Source of the DNA: Candidatus Latescibacterota bacterium
GTDB taxonomy: Bacteria; Latescibacterota; UBA2968; UBA8231
Direction of reading: 5' to 3'
NCBI GenBank assembly: GCA_965242865.1
Contig: CBDETK010000013.1
Location: 2,816,001 to 2,880,000, forward strand
DNA length: 64,000 nucleotides
Notes under the pieces: model-generated
The model's input: only the letters and a program-made list of their open reading frames with translations
What the model was told of the DNA's origin: nothing
The model's database searches: none
Position numbers and translations under genes: made by a program
In this document: piece by piece, positions 21,066 through 40,167 of the stretch
Layout of the letters: every line of letters begins with the position of its first letter
How positions within the stretch are numbered: position 1 is the first letter of the stretch

Positions 21066-22289
21066 ATGATCATTACTCCTGAAGAGATCGGGCAACGGCT
21101 GCGTTGGGCACGCGAAAGCCGGCCGATCACCCAAGAGGCCGCCGGTGCCGCGCTCGGCCTCCAGCGGTCCGCCATCAGCCTCATGGAATCCGGCCAGCGG
21201 CAGGTCTCCACGCTCGAGTTGACTCATCTCGCGGACCTGTACGGCCGGCCGATCGAATGGTTTGTTGACCCGAATAGCCAGATCGACCAAGAAGACCCGG
21301 TCGTCGCGCTTTTTCGCGCCGATCCAGGCCTGCAAAGCGAGGTCGTCCAAGCGCACACCTCGCGTTGTCTGCGCCTGCTCCGCGAAGGGGCGTCGCTGCG
21401 ACGCTTAACGGGCGGCCGGGCTGCGGTCTCCCTACCGCGCTACGAACTGCCGCCCCCGAGATCAATAGGGCAGGCGATTGCCCAAGGCCAGCTTGTGGCC
21501 GAGCAAGAGCGGCGGCGTCTCGACTTAGGCCAAGCCCCTGTCAAAGTGCCTGAAACCTTGGCCCACCAAAATATCTGGACAGCCTCCTTGCCATTACCCG
21601 ATGAAATCTCGGGTCTTTTTCTGAGCAGCCCCGACTTCGGCATGGCAATTTTAGCCAATCGCACCCAAGCCCCGGTGCGGCGGCGGTTTTCGTTTGCCCA
21701 CGAACACGGCCACGCGCTTATGGACCGCGATGAGGCGGCCACTGTTACGAGTGCTCACAACGCCAAAACGCGAACCGAACAGCGGGCCAATGCCTTTGCC
21801 GCGGCCTTCCTCATGCCCGAAGAGGGCGTCCGAGATTTTCTGCACAACTTGGGCAAAGGGCGGGGGACGCGCCGCGAGGAAGCAGCGATGGATGCCGTCA
21901 CCGAAGAAGGAATCCAAGGTCAGTTGCGTAGCCCGGCGCGTTCACAAAATGTAACCTATGCCGATGTGGTGCTTTTGGCTGAGCACTTTGAGGTAAGCTA
22001 TGCGGCGGCGGTTTGGCGGCTGCGCGGCTTGAATCTCGTCGGTCAAGCTCAGGCCCAAGCACTGCTCGACCAGTCTGAAGACGCCAAGCGATACCTTCGC
22101 ACTGTAAAGGCATCTTCGGATGTAGAGGATTCCGAAGACGAAGCATCTTGGGACCACGAATTGGCTTGGCAGATTTTGTCGCTGGCTCTGGAAGCGTGGT
22201 GGCGCGGGGAGATTTCGCAGGGACGGCTGTTGGAAGTGGGGCGATTGTTGGATATTGACGACGAAATGATCCTCGATTTGGCGGAATGA
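21066..22289 (+). CDS. XRE-HTH fused to IrrE/ImmA-family zinc metallopeptidase
   Basis: N-terminal XRE HTH (AISLMESGQR), RRRFSFAHEHGH (HExxH), EQRANAFAAAFLMP. Confidence 0.92.
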   Translation: MIITPEEIGQRLRWARESRPITQEAAGAALGLQRSAISLMESGQRQVSTLELTHLADLYGRPIEWFVDPNSQIDQEDPVVALFRADPGLQSEVVQAHTSRCLRLLREGASLRRLTGGRAAVSLPRYELPPPRSIGQAIAQGQLVAEQERRRLDLGQAPVKVPETLAHQNIWTASLPLPDEISGLFLSSPDFGMAILANRTQAPVRRRFSFAHEHGHALMDRDEAATVTSAHNAKTRTEQRANAFAAAFLMPEEGVRDFLHNLGKGRGTRREEAAMDAVTEEGIQGQLRSPARSQNVTYADVVLLAEHFEVSYAAAVWRLRGLNLVGQAQAQALLDQSEDAKRYLRTVKASSDVEDSEDEASWDHELAWQILSLALEAWWRGEISQGRLLEVGRLLDIDDEMILDLAE

Positions 22290-22363
22290 GGCTCTTTGAA
22301 TGCAACGGCAAGGCCAATGCCGATTGTCCTCGACACTTCGATCTTGCTGAATTTTGTGAAGAT
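22125..22363 (+). repeat. ~240-bp diverged direct repeat (partner 26816-27055) covering the XRE-IrrE 3' end and PIN 5' end
   Basis: Manual alignment: about 19 differences including one 1-bp indel (~92% identity). Confidence 0.95.
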
Positions 22364-22835
22364 CGGTCGGATTGAGTTGCTCGGTCAGCTTGGCACATCG
22401 GTCGTACTGCTTGACCAAGTGTTTGGTGAAGTCAGGCGTTCGGAACAAAGGGCGGCGGTTAAAAGTGCTGTGGCTTCGGGCACACTTGAGTTACAAAGCG
22501 TCCGCGATCTAGTAGAGGTTGTCCTGTTTACAGAACTTCGGGCAGGTGGGCGGCTTGGAGCCGGCGAGTGCGCTGTTCTGGCTGTTGCGCTTACTCGAAA
22601 TTGGATCGCTGGGCTTCAGGACCGCAAGGCGTACGCTGAGGGCAAGTGCCGACGCGAAGACTTGGTGATCTGTAAGACAGAGGACTTGGTGTTGACGCTG
22701 ATTAAGACTGGCTGCTTAACCATAGAAGAAGCCGACGAGCTTCTTGTCGAGTGGGCGGCGAAGCACCGATTCAGGTCAAGGCTTACCAGTTTTCGCGATC
22801 TGATGCGTGATTTTGAAGGCGATTATCGTGAATGA
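22296..22835 (+). CDS. PIN-domain protein (DUF3368-like)
   Basis: IVLDTSILLNF, V..E, LGAGE..VLA.A, QDRKA PIN-type acidic motifs. Confidence 0.8.
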   Translation: MNATARPMPIVLDTSILLNFVKIGRIELLGQLGTSVVLLDQVFGEVRRSEQRAAVKSAVASGTLELQSVRDLVEVVLFTELRAGGRLGAGECAVLAVALTRNWIAGLQDRKAYAEGKCRREDLVICKTEDLVLTLIKTGCLTIEEADELLVEWAAKHRFRSRLTSFRDLMRDFEGDYRE

Positions 22836-23897: not shown

Positions 23898-24872
23898 ATG
23901 AAGCACACTCAGTTCTTCAATGATTTTCTCGGCGATGAGGTAAATCTCAATCCCTCGCGGCTCGACAGATTAAATGATAGTGTGAAGGCTATCAGCGAAT
24001 TTTTGTCCAGAAACTTGGACTCTTATATAACGGTAGAGCGCCAAGGGTCGTATGCCTTGCGTACTATCATTAAACCCGTCAGAGAAAACCAAGGATATGA
24101 TGCCGACATATTGCTGTATATGAAGTATATGAGCGGATATCCTAGGGACTATATCAACGCGCTCTACCAATGCCTCAGAAAAAACAGGGTGTATGCGGAG
24201 AAAGCGCGTCGGAAAACCAGATGCGTGGTCTTGGACTATGCGGGTGACTTCCACTTGGACATTGTTCCGTGCGTACCTTGGGGAAACGGAAACCAGAGGA
24301 TCTGTAATAACGAAACCAACGAATTCGAGCCAACCGATGGGACAGGATACAGAGACTGGTTCAACTACAAGACCAAGATCACGCATGGAAATCTCAAAAG
24401 GGTCACGAGACTCTTAAAATATCTCAGAGACCACAAGGGGAATTTCACTGCGAAATCAATTCTCCTGACCACGCTCATAGGTAATACCGTGCGTGATGAG
24501 AGTGATAGTGACCTCTTCAGAACCTTGCCTGATGCTCTGAAGATAGTATCGAATCGCATAAATGATTTCTTGCAAATCAACCGAGTGATGCCGAAGGTCA
24601 CCAATCCCGCCTTACCTGAAGAAGATTTCACGCGGCACTGGGATCAAGAGAAGTACGATCACTTCAGGTATCTATTCAAAATCTACAATGACAAGATCAA
24701 CGCAGCTTTCGATGCCGCAGAACATGATGACAGCATCGAAAAGTGGCGCGGCGTATTTGGAGATAACTTTGGGAAAAAGCGAGGCGATGGTGGCGGTGGG
24801 AATATCAGTGGCCGTCGAGGAGCAGGGGTAGGCACTGTCGCGGTAACGCCTAGGAAGCCGTATGCGCGATGA
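23898..24872 (+). CDS. SMODS / cGAS-DncV-like nucleotidyltransferase (CD-NTase)
   Basis: AGGAGG RBS; QGSY..RT.IKP...YDAD, HLDIVP, LKYLRD, NP.LP.ED; flexible Gly-rich C-tail ending PRKPYAR. Confidence 0.9.
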   Translation: MKHTQFFNDFLGDEVNLNPSRLDRLNDSVKAISEFLSRNLDSYITVERQGSYALRTIIKPVRENQGYDADILLYMKYMSGYPRDYINALYQCLRKNRVYAEKARRKTRCVVLDYAGDFHLDIVPCVPWGNGNQRICNNETNEFEPTDGTGYRDWFNYKTKITHGNLKRVTRLLKYLRDHKGNFTAKSILLTTLIGNTVRDESDSDLFRTLPDALKIVSNRINDFLQINRVMPKVTNPALPEEDFTRHWDQEKYDHFRYLFKIYNDKINAAFDAAEHDDSIEKWRGVFGDNFGKKRGDGGGGNISGRRGAGVGTVAVTPRKPYAR

Positions 24873-25525
24873 AGCTAACTGACAGCGACATTGAGTGGTT
24901 GAGGGCTTCTTTCCCTAGTTTGGTGTACTATCAAAATGCTCAGAGGATCGTTGGAGAATTGGACTTCTGCGCTTGTTTTGACAGTACAACCGACAAGATA
25001 CGAATCTAAGGACTTGAGCGCGACGATACTATCAGAAACTCAGATAGTGTTATTTGTGACGTGTTTGAGATCGAGATTCGTCTAGATGCTGATTCCATAC
25101 ATCCCAATGGCTGGCCTAAAGTATTTGAGGTCGGAGGAAGAGCTAATGCGATTGTAAAAAAATGCTGTATAAAGAAGATAGATTTGCACTTTTATTCCGA
25201 TGACGATTCATGCTGTTTAGGTATTAGGTATGCGCGTGAAAAAAATCTGACAATTGCCCGTTTTCTTTACGATCTGGTCATTCCCTTCTTGTATCGACTA
25301 TCATATATCGACCAGTTTGGGATCGAAGCGGCTCGAAATGATCTGTGGGGTGAGTATTCACATGGAGGTTTGGGGTTAATAGAACACGCAAGGAATACAT
25401 CCCATCTCGCTTCGCATAACGTTGGGAGAAATGGACCTTGCCCCTGTGGTAGCGGTGCAAAGTACAAGAATTGTTGTTTAGACGAAGTTCAAGCGGTGGA
25501 GAGAATAGCGAGATCGAGACGTTAG
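24869..25525 (+). pseudogene. E2-like protein with C-terminal SEC-C motif (CBASS ancillary), in-frame TAA at 25007-25009
   Basis: ATGA overlap with CD-NTase; same frame as ORF 25061; PKVFE, DLHF.....CCLG, WGEYSHG, GRNGPCPCGSGAKYKNCC. Confidence 0.75.
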
Positions 25526-25570: not shown

Positions 25571-26704
25571 ATGAAAGGCAACGAATTCCTGCGACCACGC
25601 CTGTGCGGTACTCGCTTTGAAGGAGGCGGCATTCCGTTAGAAATTCTCAGTGACTTGGCCGTTCTCAAAGAGATGCTAATAGAAGTCGCCAAATGGAAAT
25701 TCCTTCAAGCACACCCTGATCGCCAACGTTCTCCCCGGGGCTTCACGGAGGGTATTGAACTGAAACTCTCCGGTGTAGAAGCGGGGAGTGCTGTTCCGAT
25801 AATCAGTCTGTCCGATACCTCTTCCCAGCTTTCGATGATGCCCAGACAGAACCTGGGTTACTTTGAGCAGGCACGTGAGGCCCTTGTTAGCACTATTGGC
25901 GCAGCCGAACATAACGGATCGGCGACAAGTCACTTACCTGAGGAGTACTTGGCGTACTTCAACCGAATTGGGCGGAGTTTGCGCGACAACGAGAGCATCG
26001 AGTTTGTCACTCCTCAACACTCAACGCAGGTGCGACTGACCAGAAAGACGCGGCACAGACTGATTCTCGCGTCTTCAAAAATAAAGGAAATCGCCGAGGA
26101 AGTGGTTCTGCGCGGCTCAATTCCCGAAGCCGATCAAGATCGAAGGACGTTCGAGTTGCAGTTGATACATGGACATAAAGTCCCCTGCCCCATCCCCGAC
26201 CCGCATATTGATACGATTCTCAAGGCATTTAATGGCTACCGGGAGAACCTGCGAGTGCTCCTTCAGGGAATAGGCAAATACGATAGACAAAATCGGTTAG
26301 TAGGCGTGGAGGCGGTTGAACATATCAGTTTGCTCGATCCTTTGGACGTTCCGGCCCGTCTCGATGAGTTCCGCGACATGAAGGACGGTTGGCTCGAAGG
26401 GGAAGGAGTGGCTCCGTCCATGGACGGCCTCGACTGGTTGGCCTCGACTTTTGACCGCCACTTTCCAGATGACTTGCCCTTGCCTTATCTCTATCCGACG
26501 CCCGAAGGCGGCGTAGAAGCAGAATGGTCGCTGGGGTCACAGTCCGTTATTTTTGAAATTGACCTTGCGACTCACCGAGACGATTGGCTTTGTTTTGACA
26601 AGCAATCGGATTGCGAGGATACGCGGTTGCTGAATCTGGATACGGCTGATAGTTGGGCGTGGTTGGTGACTGAAATTCGTCGCTTGAAAGAGGCGGGGAA
26701 ATGA
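25571..26704 (+). CDS. Conserved hypothetical defence-island protein
   Basis: 377-aa ORF with RBS; LRPRL.G.RF...IPL, RSPRGF, C-terminal L.DGW..GEG and YPTPEGG..AEW; ATGA-coupled to the next ORF. Confidence 0.7.
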   Translation: MKGNEFLRPRLCGTRFEGGGIPLEILSDLAVLKEMLIEVAKWKFLQAHPDRQRSPRGFTEGIELKLSGVEAGSAVPIISLSDTSSQLSMMPRQNLGYFEQAREALVSTIGAAEHNGSATSHLPEEYLAYFNRIGRSLRDNESIEFVTPQHSTQVRLTRKTRHRLILASSKIKEIAEEVVLRGSIPEADQDRRTFELQLIHGHKVPCPIPDPHIDTILKAFNGYRENLRVLLQGIGKYDRQNRLVGVEAVEHISLLDPLDVPARLDEFRDMKDGWLEGEGVAPSMDGLDWLASTFDRHFPDDLPLPYLYPTPEGGVEAEWSLGSQSVIFEIDLATHRDDWLCFDKQSDCEDTRLLNLDTADSWAWLVTEIRRLKEAGK

Positions 26705-26815
26705 ACGACGACACCTTGCTCTATCGGGTGACCAATCCCGACAAATTGTTCCAAGCGGGCGAAATTTGCTTTTTGTCCGTGTTACCTTTTCGAGAAGATA
26801 GCTCAAGGTTTGGAG
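26701..26815 (+). pseudogene. 5' fragment of partner gene (MNDDTLLYR...), cut off by the duplicated segment
   Basis: Translational coupling to 25571-26704; the reading frame runs into repeat-derived sequence at 26816. Confidence 0.5.
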
Positions 26816-27082
26816 GAGGATTCCGCAGACGAAGCATGTTGGGACCACGAATTGGCTTGGCAGATTCTGTCTTTGGCTCTGGAAGCGTGGTGGCGCGGGG
26901 AGATTTCGCAGGGACGGCTGTTGGAAGTGGGGCGGTTATTGGATATTGACGACGCGACGATTTTCGATTTGGCGGAATGAGGCCCTTTGAATGCCGCAGC
27001 AAGGCCCAACGCCGATTGTCCTCGACACTTCGATCTTGCTGAATTTTGTCAAGATATGCACATAAATAAAAAAGGACGACAA

Positions 27083-28165
27083 ATGGGAAGACAACAGAAT
27101 ATCTCAACCCCTGCCCAACAACTTGTTGGTAGAAAGCTACAAAACGGCTGGAAGGTCGAAAAATTGATTGATCGCTCGGAAAACGCGACAGGGGGGTACT
27201 TCTCCATCTCCTACATCGTTCGCTCTGCTAACGGAAAAAGATCCTTTCTCAAAGCAATGGATTACACAAAAGCACTAGAATCACCGGATCCAGCTAGAGA
27301 ACTACAAGCCATGACTACAGCATATAACTTTGAACAGGACGTTCTAAAAAAGTGTGAATCTAAGAAGCTGTCTCGCATAGTTAGACTTCTTGACTCTGGA
27401 ACACTGCCAGCCCAAGGAGGGGATCCAAGTAGCGTTGTTCAGTATCTTATTTTTGAATGGGCAGACCACGACATTCGGTCGTTTATCGATGATTGGAAAC
27501 AGGCTTTTGAAACGGCTTGGGCTTTAAGGACAGTGCATCAGGTAGCAGCAGCATTGCAGCAGCTTCACTACGTGGAAATAGCGCATCAAGATATAAAACC
27601 GTCAAATGTTCTGATCTTTGAAAATAACAACTCTAAGCTAGCCGATCTGGGAAGGGCATTTGATCGTCATAGCACGTCGCCCCATGATGAATCAGTCTGT
27701 GCGGGAGACCTAGCCTACGCACCGCCGGAGCTGCTATATGGATATGTTCCTCAAGACTGGAGGATACGGCGATTAGGGTGCGACCTGTATCTATTGGGCA
27801 GTCTTGTTGTATTCTTTTGCACTGGAGTTTCTATGACGCACCTGCTTTTAAACCGACTAGATGAGCAACATTTCTATACAAACTGGGGAGGTAACTACAA
27901 AGAAGTACTTCCATACCTTCAGAGTGCTTTTGCACAGATTATTCGGGAGCTTCAAGAAAAAATCCACTCTAACTTTACTGACGACATTACGGAAATGATA
28001 AAACAGCTCTGTAACCCTGATCCCGATCGACGTGGGAATCCCAAAAACATTAGATATAGCGGTAACCAATACTCTATTGAGCGGTATGTGTCTATTTTTG
28101 ATCGTATCGCCAAGAAGGCAGAATGGTCACTAACACGTAGGGATTCTATCAGGAGATCGGACTAA
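27083..28165 (+). CDS. Hanks-type Ser/Thr protein kinase
   Basis: AAGGA RBS; TGGYFS Gly-loop, FLKA, HQDIKPSN catalytic loop, DLG, YAPPE, DLYLLG. Confidence 0.9.
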   Translation: MGRQQNISTPAQQLVGRKLQNGWKVEKLIDRSENATGGYFSISYIVRSANGKRSFLKAMDYTKALESPDPARELQAMTTAYNFEQDVLKKCESKKLSRIVRLLDSGTLPAQGGDPSSVVQYLIFEWADHDIRSFIDDWKQAFETAWALRTVHQVAAALQQLHYVEIAHQDIKPSNVLIFENNNSKLADLGRAFDRHSTSPHDESVCAGDLAYAPPELLYGYVPQDWRIRRLGCDLYLLGSLVVFFCTGVSMTHLLLNRLDEQHFYTNWGGNYKEVLPYLQSAFAQIIRELQEKIHSNFTDDITEMIKQLCNPDPDRRGNPKNIRYSGNQYSIERYVSIFDRIAKKAEWSLTRRDSIRRSD

Positions 28166-28167
28166 TC

Positions 28168-29712
28168 ATGGCTGGATTTATTATTGATGCAGACCGCAAG
28201 GTTATTCCTCGCTGGAGAACATTTGACCAGACTCTGAGGCTCGGTGAGCTCAACTCTATCGCACCTTCCCGAAAACATCATCAGGGCACTTCTGACTTCT
28301 TGGTGTCAAAAATTAGAGACTGGTTGGAACACCAGACAGTGGGCCATGCGGCGGATCTCGTTGGTTCTGCTCTCACACTCGGAAAAGAAAAAGAGGAAAG
28401 AGAGGTCCCCGAAGCAGCAAGATTTCTACTACAAGAAGATATGAGTGTTTCTCCGTGGGCAAGAGAGCTTGCAAAACAAGCGTTAAAAGCTCCTGAAGAT
28501 ACTGAGATAGTGTCGTCTCCCGAGGCGTTAGAGGAATTAACCTTACATAAAAAGATCGGGACCCTCAGACACCTATTGCGTACTGAGCCCAAAGATCCAA
28601 TCACTTGGGTGGAACTTTCTCGTCTCTATGCTATATTAGGACACAGCGACCAAGCGGAAAAAAGCATGACTGTCGCGTTACAACTGGCTATGAACAATCG
28701 TTTCGTTCTACGTTCAGCTAGTCGTCTCTGGATATATCGCGATGATCCGGAGAAGGCTCACGACATCATTGGAAAGGCAGATAGAACCCGTTATGATCCT
28801 TGGCTGTTAGCAGCGGAGATTGCTATTGGTAGTATTAACCAAAGAAAACCAAAATTTGTTAAATCCGCACGGCGAATGCTATCAGACGGAAAAATTTTAC
28901 CTGCCCATATAAGTGAACTCGCATCAGCCATAGCGACATTGGACTTAGCCTCTGGTAGCATCAAAAGTTCAAAAAAACTTTTCAGACTATCTTTGAATCA
29001 TCCAACTGAGAACAGTATCGCTCAGGCTGCTTGGGCGTCAAGAGAGAAAAGCATAATTACCCTCCGCGACGAATACTTGGAGCGTCCCCATACCTTTGAG
29101 GCCCGTTTTTGGTACTTCTATAGTCAAAGTCTATGGAAAGAGGCTGTTCAGGAGTGTGAGTGGTGGCAGTATGACCAGCCATTTTCAAAAAGACCGGGTA
29201 TTCATGGTTCATATGTATCCGCGGTTGCACTTGGAGATTACGAGAGAAGTGAACAATTTGCTAGACAAGGACTTATGGCAAAACCAAAGAAGCCCATACT
29301 CCTCTTAAACAATTTAGCCTTCGCTCTTATTAATCGCGGCGATACTGAGGGAGCGAAGAAGGAGTTGTCAAAAGTCAAATGCTTGCAGCCATCCGACCAA
29401 GAATGGGTATCCTTACAAGCAACTCGGGGACTTTTGGCATTCCGAACTGGAAATGTAGATCTTGGTCGGAAATTGTACTCGGAGGCGCGTTCAAAAGCAC
29501 GAGCAATGAAGGATCGCAAACTGTTTGCCTTGGCATCTTCATTCTATGCGATTGAAGAAATCTCACAGAATACCCCAGATGCCAATTCTATACGGTCTGA
29601 AACACTTCATGCCTTACAACGAGAGCACGATCCAATCTTTAGGGTGCTCGAACACAAGCTCACCACAAAGGCAGGAACACCAAAGATTGACAGCAACCCA
29701 TGCCGACCCTAA
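28168..29712 (+). CDS. TPR-like helical repeat protein, kinase partner
   Basis: P.DPITWVELSRLY..LG....A, LLNNLAFAL...G....A, ATRGLL.FR.G; 2 nt after the kinase stop and overlapping mod. Confidence 0.75.
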   Translation: MAGFIIDADRKVIPRWRTFDQTLRLGELNSIAPSRKHHQGTSDFLVSKIRDWLEHQTVGHAADLVGSALTLGKEKEEREVPEAARFLLQEDMSVSPWARELAKQALKAPEDTEIVSSPEALEELTLHKKIGTLRHLLRTEPKDPITWVELSRLYAILGHSDQAEKSMTVALQLAMNNRFVLRSASRLWIYRDDPEKAHDIIGKADRTRYDPWLLAAEIAIGSINQRKPKFVKSARRMLSDGKILPAHISELASAIATLDLASGSIKSSKKLFRLSLNHPTENSIAQAAWASREKSIITLRDEYLERPHTFEARFWYFYSQSLWKEAVQECEWWQYDQPFSKRPGIHGSYVSAVALGDYERSEQFARQGLMAKPKKPILLLNNLAFALINRGDTEGAKKELSKVKCLQPSDQEWVSLQATRGLLAFRTGNVDLGRKLYSEARSKARAMKDRKLFALASSFYAIEEISQNTPDANSIRSETLHALQREHDPIFRVLEHKLTTKAGTPKIDSNPCRP

Positions 29713-31238
29713 CGTGGCTCACACGTGACGCCGACCTCCGCGACGCCATCCAAGTCCCCTATCGTCTCCTCGAAGAGGCCCCCGACCTTTCTACCGGCGC
29801 CCCAGACACCACCAACGCCCTCATCCAAGGCGACAACCTCGAAGCCCTCAAAGCCTTGCTGCCGTTCTACGCCGGTCAAGTGAAGTGCATCTACATTGAC
29901 CCGCCGTATAACACGAGGTCTGCCTTTGAGCACTACGACGACAATCTCGAACATACGCAATGGCTGGCGATGATGTGGCCGCGCCTTGAACTTTTGCGCG
30001 ACTTGCTGGCCGAGGATGGCTCCATTTGGGCGTCCATTGACGACAACGAATTGCACTATCTCAAAGTCATCATGGACGAGGTCTTTGGACGGAAGAATTT
30101 CGTGGCTAATGTCATCTGGGAAAAAAAATACGCGCCGCAGAACGATGCAAAATGGCTTTCGGATAGCCACGATCATATTGTTTGCTTTGCAAAAAGCAAG
30201 GAGAGGTGGCGACCGAATCTGTTGCCGCGAACCGACGAAATGAACGCCCGCTATAAGAACTTGGACGACGACCCAAGAGGCGAGTGGAAAATCAGCGGCT
30301 TAGATGTCAAGACGTATTCCGCCGTTTATGACTATCCCATCACCACTCCATCGGGACGGGTCGTCAACCCACCTGCGGGTCGTTGTTGGGTCGTTTCAAA
30401 GGAACGCTTTCAAGAACTGGTAGCGGATAACCGAGTATGGTTTGGCAAACACGGCAACAACGTGCCTTCCATAAAGCGGTTTCTCTCCGAAGTGAAACAA
30501 GGCACAGTTTCCAAGACCTTGTGGTATCGCAAAGAGGTAGGCGACAATCAGGAGGCCAAACGGGAAGCCCGCGTCTTTAACGAAGCGGAGGTTTTCGGCA
30601 CGCCCAAACCCGAACGCCTCATCCAACGCATCCTCCACCTCGCCACCAACCCCGGCGACCTCGTCCTCGACTCCTTCCTCGGCTCCGGCACCACGGCCGC
30701 GGTCGCGCACAAAATGGGCCGACGCTACATCGGCATAGAAATGGGCGAGCACGCCATCACCCATTGCGTCCCGCGCCTGAACAAAGTGATTGATGGCGAA
30801 CAAGGCGGCATCTCCAAAAGCGTTGGCTGGCAGGGCGGCGGCGGCTTCCGCTTCTACCGCCTCGGCCCGCCAGTGTTCGACGAGGAAGGACATATCCGAG
30901 CAGACATCCGCTTTCCCGTGCTGGCCGCGCACATCTGGTTCAGCGAGACCGGCCGGGCGTGGAATGGCGACGGAAACTCGCCGTTTCTCGGTCTGCACGA
31001 TGACCGCGCCTACGCCCTGCTCTACAACGGCATGCTGAGAGACAAGCGACCAGGCCGCGGCAATGTTTTGACCCGGGCGACCCTCGCTGCGATTCGGGCG
31101 GAAATTGCGCACGAGGCTCCTGTTTTTAACGGCCCGCTCACGGTCTATGGCGAGCAGTCGCGCTTGACGCCAGCGACGCTCGACCGGGAGGGCATCGCCT
31201 TCAAACAGACGCCCTACGACGTGCGATCGAGAACCTGA
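29700..31238 (+). CDS. mod: Type III R-M methyltransferase Mod
   Basis: IYIDPPYN, TPKPE, LDSFLGSGTT; directly upstream of res. Confidence 0.93.
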   Translation: MPTLTWLTRDADLRDAIQVPYRLLEEAPDLSTGAPDTTNALIQGDNLEALKALLPFYAGQVKCIYIDPPYNTRSAFEHYDDNLEHTQWLAMMWPRLELLRDLLAEDGSIWASIDDNELHYLKVIMDEVFGRKNFVANVIWEKKYAPQNDAKWLSDSHDHIVCFAKSKERWRPNLLPRTDEMNARYKNLDDDPRGEWKISGLDVKTYSAVYDYPITTPSGRVVNPPAGRCWVVSKERFQELVADNRVWFGKHGNNVPSIKRFLSEVKQGTVSKTLWYRKEVGDNQEAKREARVFNEAEVFGTPKPERLIQRILHLATNPGDLVLDSFLGSGTTAAVAHKMGRRYIGIEMGEHAITHCVPRLNKVIDGEQGGISKSVGWQGGGGFRFYRLGPPVFDEEGHIRADIRFPVLAAHIWFSETGRAWNGDGNSPFLGLHDDRAYALLYNGMLRDKRPGRGNVLTRATLAAIRAEIAHEAPVFNGPLTVYGEQSRLTPATLDREGIAFKQTPYDVRSRT

Positions 31239-37141: not shown

Positions 37142-38072
37142 GAAGCTGTCTGAAAACTCTGTGATGTATCGCGTATTTGAGTTGGCGTACTCATTGAGCC
37201 ATCTTCAGGTTTCGCCAAAAAATCTGAACAGAAAGGCTCGTATAATGAGTACGCCGCATGGTCAATATGCCACCGATGTAACCGATGCGCAATGGCCGCC
37301 GATCGAACCGGTACTGCCGGCTCCGATTTGGCGTCCCAAGGGTCCGGGTCGGCCACCGCGCGACCGGCGCCCGATCGTCCATGGTATTTTGTATCTGACG
37401 AAGGCCGGCTGTCCTTGGGCGTTGTTGCCGCTTTGTTTTGGTCCTTGGAAGACGGTGTATGATGCCTTCCGCCGCTGGAGTCGCCAAGGGGTCTGGGCGC
37501 AGGTGTTGGGTCGGCTCACTCAGCAGGAACGTCGTCGTACCGGCCGGGCGGCTACGCCATCGTCTGGCTGTATCGACAGCCAGACGATAAAGACTGCAAC
37601 CCAAGGTAAAACAACTGGATATGACGCCGGAAAAAAATCCAAGGACGCAAACGTCCTCTATTAGTCGACTCCTTGGGCTTGCTTCAACAGGTGGTGGTCA
37701 CCGCCGCCGATGTCGAAGACCGGGCAGGCTTGAAGCAGGTGTTGACCCGCTATCAGGCGACCGGCACTCCCCGGTTACGCAAACTGTGGGGCGATGGCGG
37801 CTATCGCGGCGCGGCGATCCGAACATGGGTGGCCAACCTCAAAAAGACGCACAAGATCGACTTGGAAATCGTCGCCAAACAAGGCCCCGGATGTACCGTA
37901 CTCAAACGGCGTTGGGTCGTTGAGCGCACCTGGGCATGGTTGATGAATTTTAGACGCCATGCCCGAGAGTATGAGGTCCTGACGCGCCATAGCGAAGCCT
38001 TGATTCAGATCGCCATGATCCACCTAGTACTTAAACGAATCAAATAGAAAAATATAGTTTTCAGACCGCTTC
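37142..38072 (+). mobile_element. IS5-family insertion sequence
   Basis: TIRs GAAGCTGTCTGAAAAC / GTTTTCAGACCGCTTC; TAA target duplication (37139-37141, 38073-38075). Confidence 0.93.
37245..38047 (+). pseudogene. IS5 DDE transposase, two frames joined at an A7 slip site (37631-37637); many conserved residues substituted
   Basis: IDSQ, GYDAGKK, LVDSLG, DGGY, RWVVERT motifs. Confidence 0.85.
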
Positions 38073-39225
38073 TAAATATTAACGAATCGGAGGAGCTTTT
38101 TGAAATGGCCCTAAGTGGCGGTTTAGTGGCTTTTGAGGATATTGGCCTAGGTATGGCGAAGTCTGTATCGATAGGGGTGGAAACAGGTTGGGAGCAGAAT
38201 AAAGAAAAAGCGTATCCCAAGTCGTTTATTATATATAGATTGAATGGTGTAGAGTGGAGTCGGTTTACGCGAACAGAAACTCTGAATCGGAATTGGAATA
38301 GGGCGCATCCCTTCTTTGAGCAGGCGGAGAAAAAGATTCAAGGTATAGCGAACCACCACCATCGTTCCCATTTAAGCCTGTATTTCAAAGATATGGATAA
38401 AAATGTTCATCTGAGTATTAAAAGCATTGTGGAGAGAATGATAAAAAGAATAAACTATTTGGGGCCATTCCGAGAAATACCTTCTCGTCATTTTAGACCA
38501 CAAAGAACGCCCGATGAATCACTATGGGCAAAGGGGATAGAGGCATGGAATATACTTGGCAGAGATCCTAAGTTGATCGAAAAAACAAACTCCTACATGG
38601 AAGATTTTTTGAAACTGGGATATACCATTAAGCTAGAAGAATCTGTCTCGCTAGATGCGGTCCTGACGAACCTAAACGAGCTTGACAGGCCCTACAAATT
38701 AGAAGAACAAATTGATCATATCAAAAAAGTCCCTCGCCAAATTACCTTGAAGATCCATAACGAAGAAAATGATATTGACTTGGATCTTCCAGATGTCGGT
38801 CTTGGCATTTCCCAAGTTATTCCCATTTTGGTGGGGGTTTCGCATACGGGACGGTCAGTAGCTCCTGATAAGATAGGCATTTTCGCGGTTGAAGAGCCGG
38901 AACTCCATCTTCACCCTGCCGCTCAGGTTGCACTGGGTGACGTGTTTATTGACGGCATACAAAACAGCAATCCTACCTTCCTCATCGAAACGCATTCTGA
39001 GCATTTGCTACTGCGATTGCTGCGCCGCGTACATGAGACCTCTAGTACACGGATTGATTCAAAATCCAAGTTGCCACCTAACGATTTATCTGTAGTTTAT
39101 GTTCAGGCAACGCCAGCAGGTGCTAAGTTTATCCCTGTCTCTGTAACAGATGACGGAGATTTTGATGAACCTTGGCCAGAAGGTTTTTTTGAAGAACGCG
39201 ACTCAGAACTATTTTATTATGCTTA

Positions 39226-40167
39226 GAGCGTATACGAAAATCATGTCAATCGTTTTACTACTTGAAAAATAATCAGCACGGAAGCGAGCTGAATGAATGC
39301 TTGGTAATGGGTTATCTTTTTTTCCCATCGGATCAGCAACCGGCGGAATCGATGATGCCCTGCCTGGGTTCGTTCGACGACCCATCGCCGGGGCGGATTT
39401 TTCTTTTGGGTTCGCCGTGTGTCCGGGTCGGCTTTGCCTTGGGGCACATGGATGTGATAGTCGCGTTGGGTGGCCCCTTTGAGGACTTCGGTGTATTCAT
39501 AGCCTCTGTCGAGACACAAATGGTGCAACCGATAGACGACTTTCTTGGGTCTTTCCACCACGAGACGATCCAACGTCGCCAAGGCGACGGCTTTGTCCGG
39601 CGTATTAGCCCCCGTTATTTGCACGGCCAGCGGTACGCCGCGCTGGTCGGTCCACACCGACCGTTTGGTGCCCTGTTTCCCTCGGTCCACGGGCGAAGGC
39701 CCGGTCGCTTCGCCGCCCAAGGGGGCTTTGGTAATCACCCCATCGAGGGCTTGCCATTTCCACGCAATCCCCACTTCCCTATTATAGTAGTGCAACAGGG
39801 TCTGCCACGCCCGGAAAAACACGCCTTGTTGAACCCACGGGCGGAACCGACCAGGCACCGTCGAGCCGGGAGGATAGGCTGGCCGCGGAAGGGCTTGCCA
39901 CGGGCAGCCGCTACGCAGCACAACGATCAGGGCGTCGAAAATAACGCGGTTGGGGGTGGCTGGACGTCCGACCGTGCCGGGTGGTTTATCCGGTCCCAGT
40001 ATCGGCGCGATCTGATGCCACAAGGCGTCCGGGGTATGCCAAAGCGGAGCCTGCGAATGGGTCTTGGTGACCATGACTTTCCTCCTCTGAATTGAGGTCA
40101 AATGCTACGGAAAGTGTAGGTTGCCAAGACCTTTTTATCAACTGAAAAACAATTTTCGTATACGCTC
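39226..40167 (-). mobile_element. Second, different IS5-family insertion sequence
   Basis: Perfect 15-bp TIR GAGCGTATACGAAAA / TTTTCGTATACGCTC; TTA target duplication (39223-39225, 40168-40170). Confidence 0.93.
39241..40074 (-). CDS. IS5 transposase (open frame but heavily substituted, probably inactive)
   Basis: AGGAGG RBS; LDG..TKAPLGG, DRGK.GTKRS, LCLDRGY, RWVVERT, RFRRLLIRWEKK. Confidence 0.85.
   Translation of the reverse strand: MVTKTHSQAPLWHTPDALWHQIAPILGPDKPPGTVGRPATPNRVIFDALIVVLRSGCPWQALPRPAYPPGSTVPGRFRPWVQQGVFFRAWQTLLHYYNREVGIAWKWQALDGVITKAPLGGEATGPSPVDRGKQGTKRSVWTDQRGVPLAVQITGANTPDKAVALATLDRLVVERPKKVVYRLHHLCLDRGYEYTEVLKGATQRDYHIHVPQGKADPDTRRTQKKNPPRRWVVERTQAGHHRFRRLLIRWEKKITHYQAFIQLASVLIIFQVVKRLT

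Follow-up and report, generated by a model that had tools for sequence, protein, structure and literature searches.

A kinase–TPR gene pair of the candidate defence family PDC-M71 in an island of a Latescibacterota genome

Kinase-based systems and the family of the pair

To our knowledge, few of the anti-phage systems that rely on a kinase are understood as yet, Stk2 being one example. Stk2 of Staphylococcus reportedly brings about abortive infection as a single-gene kinase, and PD-T4-6 is likewise said to be a kinase defence encoded by one gene. Kinases of the PknG type carry kinase and tetratricopeptide repeat (TPR) domains in one chain, with the TPR part packed on the kinase; PknG itself is a housekeeping or virulence regulator. 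Here we describe a pair of genes, one for a Hanks-type Ser/Thr kinase and one for a TPR protein, in a stretch of 64,000 nucleotides (the window) from a Candidatus Latescibacterota bacterium (assembly GCA_965242865.1, contig CBDETK010000013.1, positions 2,816,001 to 2,880,000 of the forward strand), where they lie near CBASS and type III restriction-modification (R-M) genes.

A first-pass annotation of this DNA had put the pair forward as an undescribed defence system, provided that it matched none already named. It does match one, the candidate PDC-M71 of PADLOC-DB, and both genes do so over their full length. Against PADLOC-DB v2, residues 6-350 of the kinase aligned with positions 4-349 of the 352 in PDC-M71A (PDLC04780; E 6.9e-127, 421.6 bits), and residues 1-486 of the TPR protein with positions 1-492 of the 515 in PDC-M71B (PDLC04781; E 2.4e-139, 463.4 bits). 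The genes are adjacent on one strand, with a 2-nt gap, and the assignment to PDC-M71 is based on the two PADLOC hidden Markov models and this adjacency rather than on PADLOC's system-calling rules. With the same two profiles, order and strand, the pair differs in nothing from the family, to which it adds a further instance, next to CBASS and type III R-M. Judged from its sequence, it is a real and intact member of a catalogued candidate family, itself a candidate for defence, and does not count as a new system.

PADLOC's candidates of this kind (PDCs), 145 in number, were curated from genes that lie within BREX, DISARM and type I R-M systems (10.1101/2024.01.29.577857). They are predictions made by guilt-by-embedding, and the source itself calls them untested (Payne et al., 10.1101/2024.01.29.577857); according to the same paper, their association with other defence systems is less frequent than that of systems discovered through enrichment. 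In a cold-seep study, eight PADLOC candidate systems were chosen at random and tested in E. coli B, and four of the eight were protective (PMC12881386); PDC-M71 was not one of them. This proportion gives a rough prior of one half for such a candidate. Our full-text literature search found the term "PDC-M71" in one soil-virus census preprint only, and no functional study of a kinase–TPR defence pair. The available parts of the DefensePredictor paper (PMC13092281) and of a preprint on an S. thermophilus island describe other systems and not such a pair, and an NCBIfam scan returned no specific and no defence family for either protein. The family being already catalogued, our analysis contributes its strict pairing, its mobility, cases in which the pair is embedded in other systems, and a heterodimer model that can be tested. 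Pairing across many phyla, embedding in BREX and Hma and a confident model with a testable interface put the candidate on a firmer footing.

The kinase open reading frame (ORF) opens with an ATG at 27083, with an extended alternative starting from a TTG at 26987. Its product scored 74.8 bits on Pfam Pkinase (PF00069), for which the cut-off is 31.7; the Pfam matches were limited to Pkinase, PK_Tyr_Ser-Thr and Kdo, and the scan detected no further, non-kinase domain. Nor did it return a HipA family, as would be expected of a HipA-type toxin kinase. When the window protein was aligned with 23 homologues (24 sequences), K57, E84, H168-Q169-D170, K172, N175, D188-L189-G190, P214-P215-E216 and R317 were invariant, so that the catalytic motifs are complete, as first annotated. 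The HQD motif, read directly from the sequence, makes this a non-RD kinase. The best of five AlphaFold2 (AF2) models has a bilobal kinase fold followed by a long C-terminal helix (pLDDT 85.2, pTM 0.85), and Foldseek placed it closest to the kinase domains of AAK1, CDK, CLK and PknB (E ~1e-12, 14-20% identity). A PDB sequence search found generic kinase cores only, with E values of at least 1.9e-12. Profile score, motif set and predicted fold all agree on a Hanks-type (eukaryotic-like) protein kinase.

The TPR protein matched three Pfam repeat families above their cut-offs, namely TPR_2 (34.5 bits, cut-off 27), TPR_19 (33, cut-off 25) and TPR_17 (25.8, cut-off 24.4). Its AF2 model contains 28 helices (pLDDT 84.1), and in Foldseek it resembled the TPR solenoids of Tom70/71, anaphase-promoting complex (APC/C) subunits and OGT. 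A PDB sequence search with the TPR profile found designed or consensus TPRs only (E at least 1e-4), and a search of the ESM Atlas found generic TPR clusters only. The two motifs remarked on at first sight are both present, RKVIPRWR at residues 10-17 and TENSIAQAAW at residues 280-289, and consist mostly of invariant positions: across 25 sequences, R10, P14, R15, W16, R17, T280, E281, N282, S283, A285, Q286 and W289 do not vary.

The kinase ends with a TAA at 28163-28165 and the TPR gene starts, 2 nt further on, with an ATG at 28168. An AGGAG motif lies ~15 nt upstream of that start, within the 3' end of the kinase gene, and together with the 2-nt gap it is consistent with translational coupling of the two genes. 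The end of the TPR gene, stop codon included, overlaps by 13 nt the mod (type III methyltransferase) gene, whose ATG is at 29700. The 514-residue TPR-like product, its 2-nt distance from the kinase and its overlap with mod had all been read correctly in the first-pass annotation, as had the AT-richness of the kinase gene. The kinase gene has a GC content of 44.6% and its partner one of 45.8%, whereas the window averages 57.9% and most 1-kb bins outside the island have 60-67%; the pair thus stands at ~45% GC against about 62% for the surrounding genome. A promoter and terminator scan of 26500-30000 found no excess of sites over shuffled sequence.

Compared with described systems, Stk2 shares with PDC-M71 a Hanks-type Ser/Thr kinase effector and a proposed course from phage cue through phosphorylation to arrest, but has no obligate TPR partner. 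Only the kinase core matches the Stk2 profile (35.9 bits, residues 124-259 on positions 198-328 of 500, against 421.6 bits for PDC-M71A), and we rejected membership. PD-T4-6 and the MADS kinase MAD6 resemble PDC-M71 in kinase domain and defence context and differ in architecture; their matches are confined to the kinase core. PD-T4-6, a stand-alone gene, matched at best with 61.9 bits (residues 119-240 on positions 85-200 of 327), whereas the PDC-M71 kinase has its partner in every testable locus, and MAD6 matched with 48.2 bits against a cut-off of 460 for NCBIfam NF047741 and with 70.9 bits for PADLOC mad6. PknG likewise combines a Hanks kinase with a TPR module, whereas PDC-M71 consists of two genes in an island cassette. 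In gene layout, the pair can also be likened to BcTir/BcTpr, a two-gene operon of an enzymatic effector, there a TIR protein and not a kinase, and a separate TPR protein for which a part in recognition and in activating the effector has been proposed (10.1101/2023.05.26.542521).

Pairing and mobility of the cassette

To see how the two genes are distributed, we scanned one genome per species for relatives of the kinase and found them encoded in 304; the results for single loci given here (with handles such as L004) concern the best 80 of these 304, which by their record titles span more than a dozen phyla. With tblastn, 77 of the 80 loci had a TPR homologue immediately after the kinase, in the same orientation. 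The contigs of the other three stop 65-277 nt past the kinase, so that the pairing holds in 77 of 77 testable loci and the homologues are indeed co-located, a check that the first-pass annotation had proposed. In 74 of the 77, the kinase and TPR matches came within -30 to +73 nt of each other; the exceptions are L010 and L030, in which the kinase is interrupted by ~1.6 kb, and L014, in which both genes are degraded. L010 (9953-13830) and L030 are examples of cassette decay: the insert that splits the kinase gene of L010 holds a 280-aa ORF, and the TPR gene there is intact.

When 1224 ORFs of the loci and the window island were clustered, the kinase cluster comprised 79 loci and the window and the TPR cluster 73 loci and the window. 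The next largest cluster reached 5 loci; a third conserved gene was therefore rejected, no flanking cluster occurring in more than five. Between 64 sources, distances among the kinases are correlated with those among the TPR proteins (Mantel r 0.73, a value matched in 0 of 999 permutations); this shows joint inheritance, which any other two genes sharing a cassette would also display.

The TPR profile found no match in the 24 genomes of the same genus that we searched; in a second genus of the class, 2 of the 12 genomes searched had it. The pair is found on three plasmids, those of Rhizobium etli IE4771, Arthrobacter sp. ANT_H19B and Deinococcus sp. NW-56, beside integrase, relaxase, IS30 and TniQ genes, and the plasmid copies of the two proteins are annotated just as kinase or hypothetical. 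Other cultured carriers among the loci are Bradyrhizobium manausense BR 3351, Ensifer sp. MPMI2T and Micromonospora trifolii NIE79. Phage records gave no kinase match at E<=1e-20. Together with its low GC, these distributions mark the pair as a self-contained, horizontally mobile two-gene cassette. A metagenome-assembled genome (MAG) labelled Nanoarchaeota (L081) also carries the pair, with 43% kinase identity, which could reflect transfer to an archaeon or a binning error.

Predicted complex, possible action and rival explanations

Modelling the kinase and the TPR protein together, a check that had been suggested at the outset, gave a confident interface, with ipSAE values of 0.87, 0.88 and 0.88 in three runs and 0.00 in all three controls. 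The mark used for ipSAE is reached by 116 of 157 solved complexes and by 2 of 215 mismatched pairs, a calibration that is only rough here because the complex model used custom alignments. The runs share at least 91% of their contacts, and the partner pLDDT is at least 87. On the kinase side the confident interface takes in residues 132-139, 173-174 in the catalytic loop, 209-212 in the P+1 loop and 246-293. In the AF2 model, residues 246-293 comprise the last part of the long central helix, the short helix after it and helix 272-293. The TPR protein contributes residues 23-72, 93-104, 136-146 and 173-180 to the interface; the N-terminal region of ~110 residues is predicted to contact the kinase, while residues ~200-500 of the solenoid are free. 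The lowest-error pairs join kinase V275-L276-P277-Y278 to E140-P141-x-D143-P144-I145 and N177-R178-F179 of the TPR protein. The first two of these motifs are nearly invariant and the third invariant. More broadly, the model pairs kinase 277-285 with TPR 140-146 and 177-180, and TPR helix 58-71 with the P+1 loop at 209-212, and conservation on the TPR side is higher in the interface than elsewhere (0.745 versus 0.657, p 0.013). TPR residue 57, within the interface, is a Thr or a Ser in all 25 sequences and, speculatively, could be a phospho-acceptor.

In kinases generally, substrates dock on the side made up of the P+1 loop and the C-lobe helices next to it. Because the modelled contacts fall on these elements, the TPR protein is more likely to be an occluder, a substrate or a substrate adaptor than an N-lobe activator. 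The model thus supports a heterodimer of kinase and TPR protein. The first-pass annotation had suggested that the TPR protein senses a phage protein or restrains the kinase, which then triggers abortive infection; binding is supported by the complex model (ipSAE 0.88), restraint itself is possible, and phage sensing and abortive infection are hypothetical.

We suggest that the pair is a kinase effector held by its TPR partner, serving in defence by abortive infection or in a toxin-antitoxin-like manner, a reading to which we give an even chance. In the resting cell, the TPR protein would occlude or gate the kinase, its N-terminal region and first repeats lying on the P+1 loop, catalytic loop and C-lobe helices. 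A phage-derived cue, either bound by the free C-terminal solenoid or acting through loss of the partner, would release the kinase, which would then phosphorylate host or phage proteins, and this phosphorylation would stop the infection through growth arrest or abortive infection, by a logic like that of toxin-antitoxin modules. The binding step is taken from the complex model; the steps after it we infer. A narrower version, possible though on balance doubtful, is that a non-RD Hanks kinase is silenced by a dedicated TPR receptor over its docking face until a conserved phage component binds the solenoid and releases it, leading to abortive infection. Receptor-gated signalling through non-RD kinases operates in eukaryotic innate immunity, and PDC-M71 would, if this version is true, be a bacterial counterpart of it. 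If defensive at all, PDC-M71 would add a two-component kinase system with a separate receptor or inhibitor.

To assess the defence context, we took from each of 79 loci the called ORFs closest to the pair, two per side, and compared them with PADLOC profiles (E<=1e-20), leaving out L026, in which the kinase was not recovered by ORF calling and clustering, and four ORFs that are PDC-M71 fragments; the control consisted of 20 regions of 7 kb each, spaced evenly over the genome to which the window belongs. PADLOC matches made up 38 of 280 flanking ORFs (16/148 and 22/132 in two scans) versus 8 of 120 control ORFs, an odds ratio of 2.2 (one-sided p 0.031). Defence-gene enrichment around the pair is thus weak, which fits the low co-localisation that the PDC paper itself reports (10.1101/2024.01.29.577857).

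Embedded instances are more telling than this flank test. A scan of the whole locus L019 gave the order PD-T4-4_A, HmaA, NsnA, NsnB, the pair, HmaB and, further on, HmaC. L010 has HmaA followed by a truncated M71A, the inserted ORF and M71B, with HmaB further on, and in L068 the pair stands between PglX and a 423-aa ORF that is followed by PglZ and BrxL. These relatives inside BREX and Hma match the embedding rationale of the catalogue (10.1101/2024.01.29.577857). Furthermore, in L080 the pair comes just after PglZ-BrxL, and in L057 it lies between type I R-M with an Old-like gene and PD-T4-3 with WYL. In L004, L033, L043 and L073, a gene for a CapP-like M78 peptidase, recognised as a PADLOC capP or RmrA hit, is no more than two ORFs away from the pair; the same holds for L072, where the gene was assigned by clustering with that of L073.

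Several observations weigh against a defensive, receptor-gated kinase. The literature search gave no experimental work on PDC-M71. The complex model cannot distinguish an inhibitor from a substrate or adaptor, and the kinase side of the interface is not more conserved than the rest of the protein (0.685 versus 0.734). The TPR solenoid is evenly conserved (0.6-0.78 per 50-residue block in 25 sequences), with no hypervariable surface of the kind a sensor might have. A fused kinase–TPR form was not found either, two longer relatives (712 and 820 aa) having no TPR similarity, which is weak evidence. In the flank test the two-sided p is 0.059 only, and of the enrichment check that the first-pass annotation had proposed, the odds ratio is favourable and the per-locus rate is not: at least one PADLOC hit was present in 26 of 79 loci and in 7 of 20 control regions, rates that are alike, and 53 of the 79 loci had no hit in the nearest four ORFs. 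The test is weak because its control is a single R-M-rich genome with longer ORFs. Three of the 20 control regions (L095, L097 and L102) hold type I, II or IIG R-M genes (4 ORFs), and the control rate is therefore inflated.

The pair could instead be a plain toxin-antitoxin or addiction module, with the kinase as toxin and the TPR protein as antitoxin, that keeps islands and plasmids stable and lacks any dedicated means of sensing phages. Tight coupling of the two genes, the predicted position of the partner on the substrate side of the kinase, the occurrence of the pair on three plasmids and beside integrases and IS elements, and the weak enrichment all speak for this. However, a well-folded, evenly conserved partner of 514 residues differs from the typical small and labile antitoxin, and the embedding in BREX and Hma operons likewise speaks against a plain module, which we hold to be unlikely; toxin-antitoxin and abortive-infection roles can in any case coexist, and to that extent this explanation overlaps the one we prefer. 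The low GC of the pair, its patchy phyletic spread with no copy found in the 24 congeners, its embedding in BREX and Hma and the lack of a conserved housekeeping neighbour speak likewise against an ordinary signalling pair, in which a eukaryotic-like kinase and its TPR scaffold or substrate would ride on mobile DNA with no part in conflict. We consider such a pair quite unlikely, even though the loci without nearby hits, the control-like rate per locus and the want of an NCBIfam defence family for either protein are what it would predict.

The overlap of the TPR gene with mod raises a further explanation, that the pair serves the neighbouring type III R-M system in an accessory or regulatory role and is transcribed together with mod, and the closest locus, L004, also has mod and res downstream. 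Of the 80 loci and the window, however, only L004 and the window itself contain the mod and res clusters; in L004 the TPR gene and mod are ~2.1 kb apart, with other DNA between them, and elsewhere the pair stands in unrelated contexts. The 13-nt overlap is therefore local and not a trait of the family, a general link to type III R-M was rejected, and we regard this explanation as highly improbable. The preferred reading, a kinase effector held by its TPR partner, thus concerns a module that is real, intact and strictly paired, and that is plausibly defensive.

The island around the pair

The pair had been described as wedged between CBASS and type III R-M. Its position is correct, with the qualification that a PDC-M32A-like gene and the remnant of a helix-turn-helix (HTH)-peptidase M78 regulator gene intervene on the CBASS side (Table 1).

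Table 1. Features of the pair and of the surrounding island in the window
Feature	Positions	Strand	Context	Evidence
HTH-peptidase M78 (RmrA/CapP-like) gene and PDC-S70-like gene (179 aa, E 1e-11)	21066-22835			77% nucleotide identity to L004 8213-9965
CBASS E2-like gene, apparently broken	24869-25525			in-frame stop 25007-25009
PDC-M32A-like gene	25571-26704		between CBASS and kinase	PADLOC full length, E 6.6e-144; PHROG 30544, E 1.6e-88
82-aa ORF, probably not a gene	26701-26949		overlaps HTH-M78 remnant	no family match
HTH-peptidase M78 regulator gene remnant (3' end, 240 nt)	26816-27055	+		blastn, 81% identity to L004 9272-9511
PDC-M71A, predicted Hanks-type (non-RD, HQD) Ser/Thr protein kinase, 360 aa	27083-28165	+		PADLOC, Pfam, alignment, AF2
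Kinase/TPR junction (stop codon, 2 nt, start codon)	28163-28170	+		read from sequence
PDC-M71B, predicted all-alpha TPR solenoid, 514 aa	28168-29712	+		PADLOC, Pfam, AF2, Foldseek
IS4/5-type DUF4096 fragment	37161-37664		low-GC patch	
AAA_15 ATPase	38105-39226		low-GC patch	matches PDC-M55A/NsnB

L004, from a Latescibacterota MAG, is the closest locus among the best 80 of 304 (69% kinase identity). Its order is HTH-M78, PDC-S70-like, kinase, TPR, a C-terminal fragment of PDC-M32A, a 457-aa ORF, mod and res, so that an intact HTH-M78 gene and a PDC-S70-like gene, two neighbours conserved as a pair between L004 and the window, directly precede the kinase. In the window the order is HTH-M78, PDC-S70-like, patatin, CD-NTase, E2, PDC-M32A, HTH-M78 remnant and kinase, the remnant sitting directly upstream of the kinase. 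Because these orders differ and the 3' remnant of an HTH-M78 gene precedes the kinase, we regard the island as a mosaic: in the window the regulator that once stood upstream of the pair has probably been lost, and the pair lies next to CBASS and type III R-M as a result of this mosaicism, with no functional link. PDC-S70 has been reported to protect E. coli in the cold-seep study (PMC12881386). PDC-M32A is a multi-gene candidate, and no partner gene was recognised beside the gene in the window; L004 keeps only the C-terminal fragment, after its TPR gene.

The first-pass annotation had also described several neighbours as decayed, which is true of some. An ATG at 24869, overlapping the CD-NTase stop, is in the same frame as the 154-aa E2 ORF and is cut off from it by the stop at 25007-25009, and the PADLOC match to E2 begins at profile position 46; the 82-aa ORF that overlaps the regulator remnant can be added. 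Patatin, CD-NTase, mod and res, by contrast, match their profiles over the full length. Further downstream, more low-GC patches (42-47%) at about 38-41 kb and 49-51 kb suggest additional island cargo.

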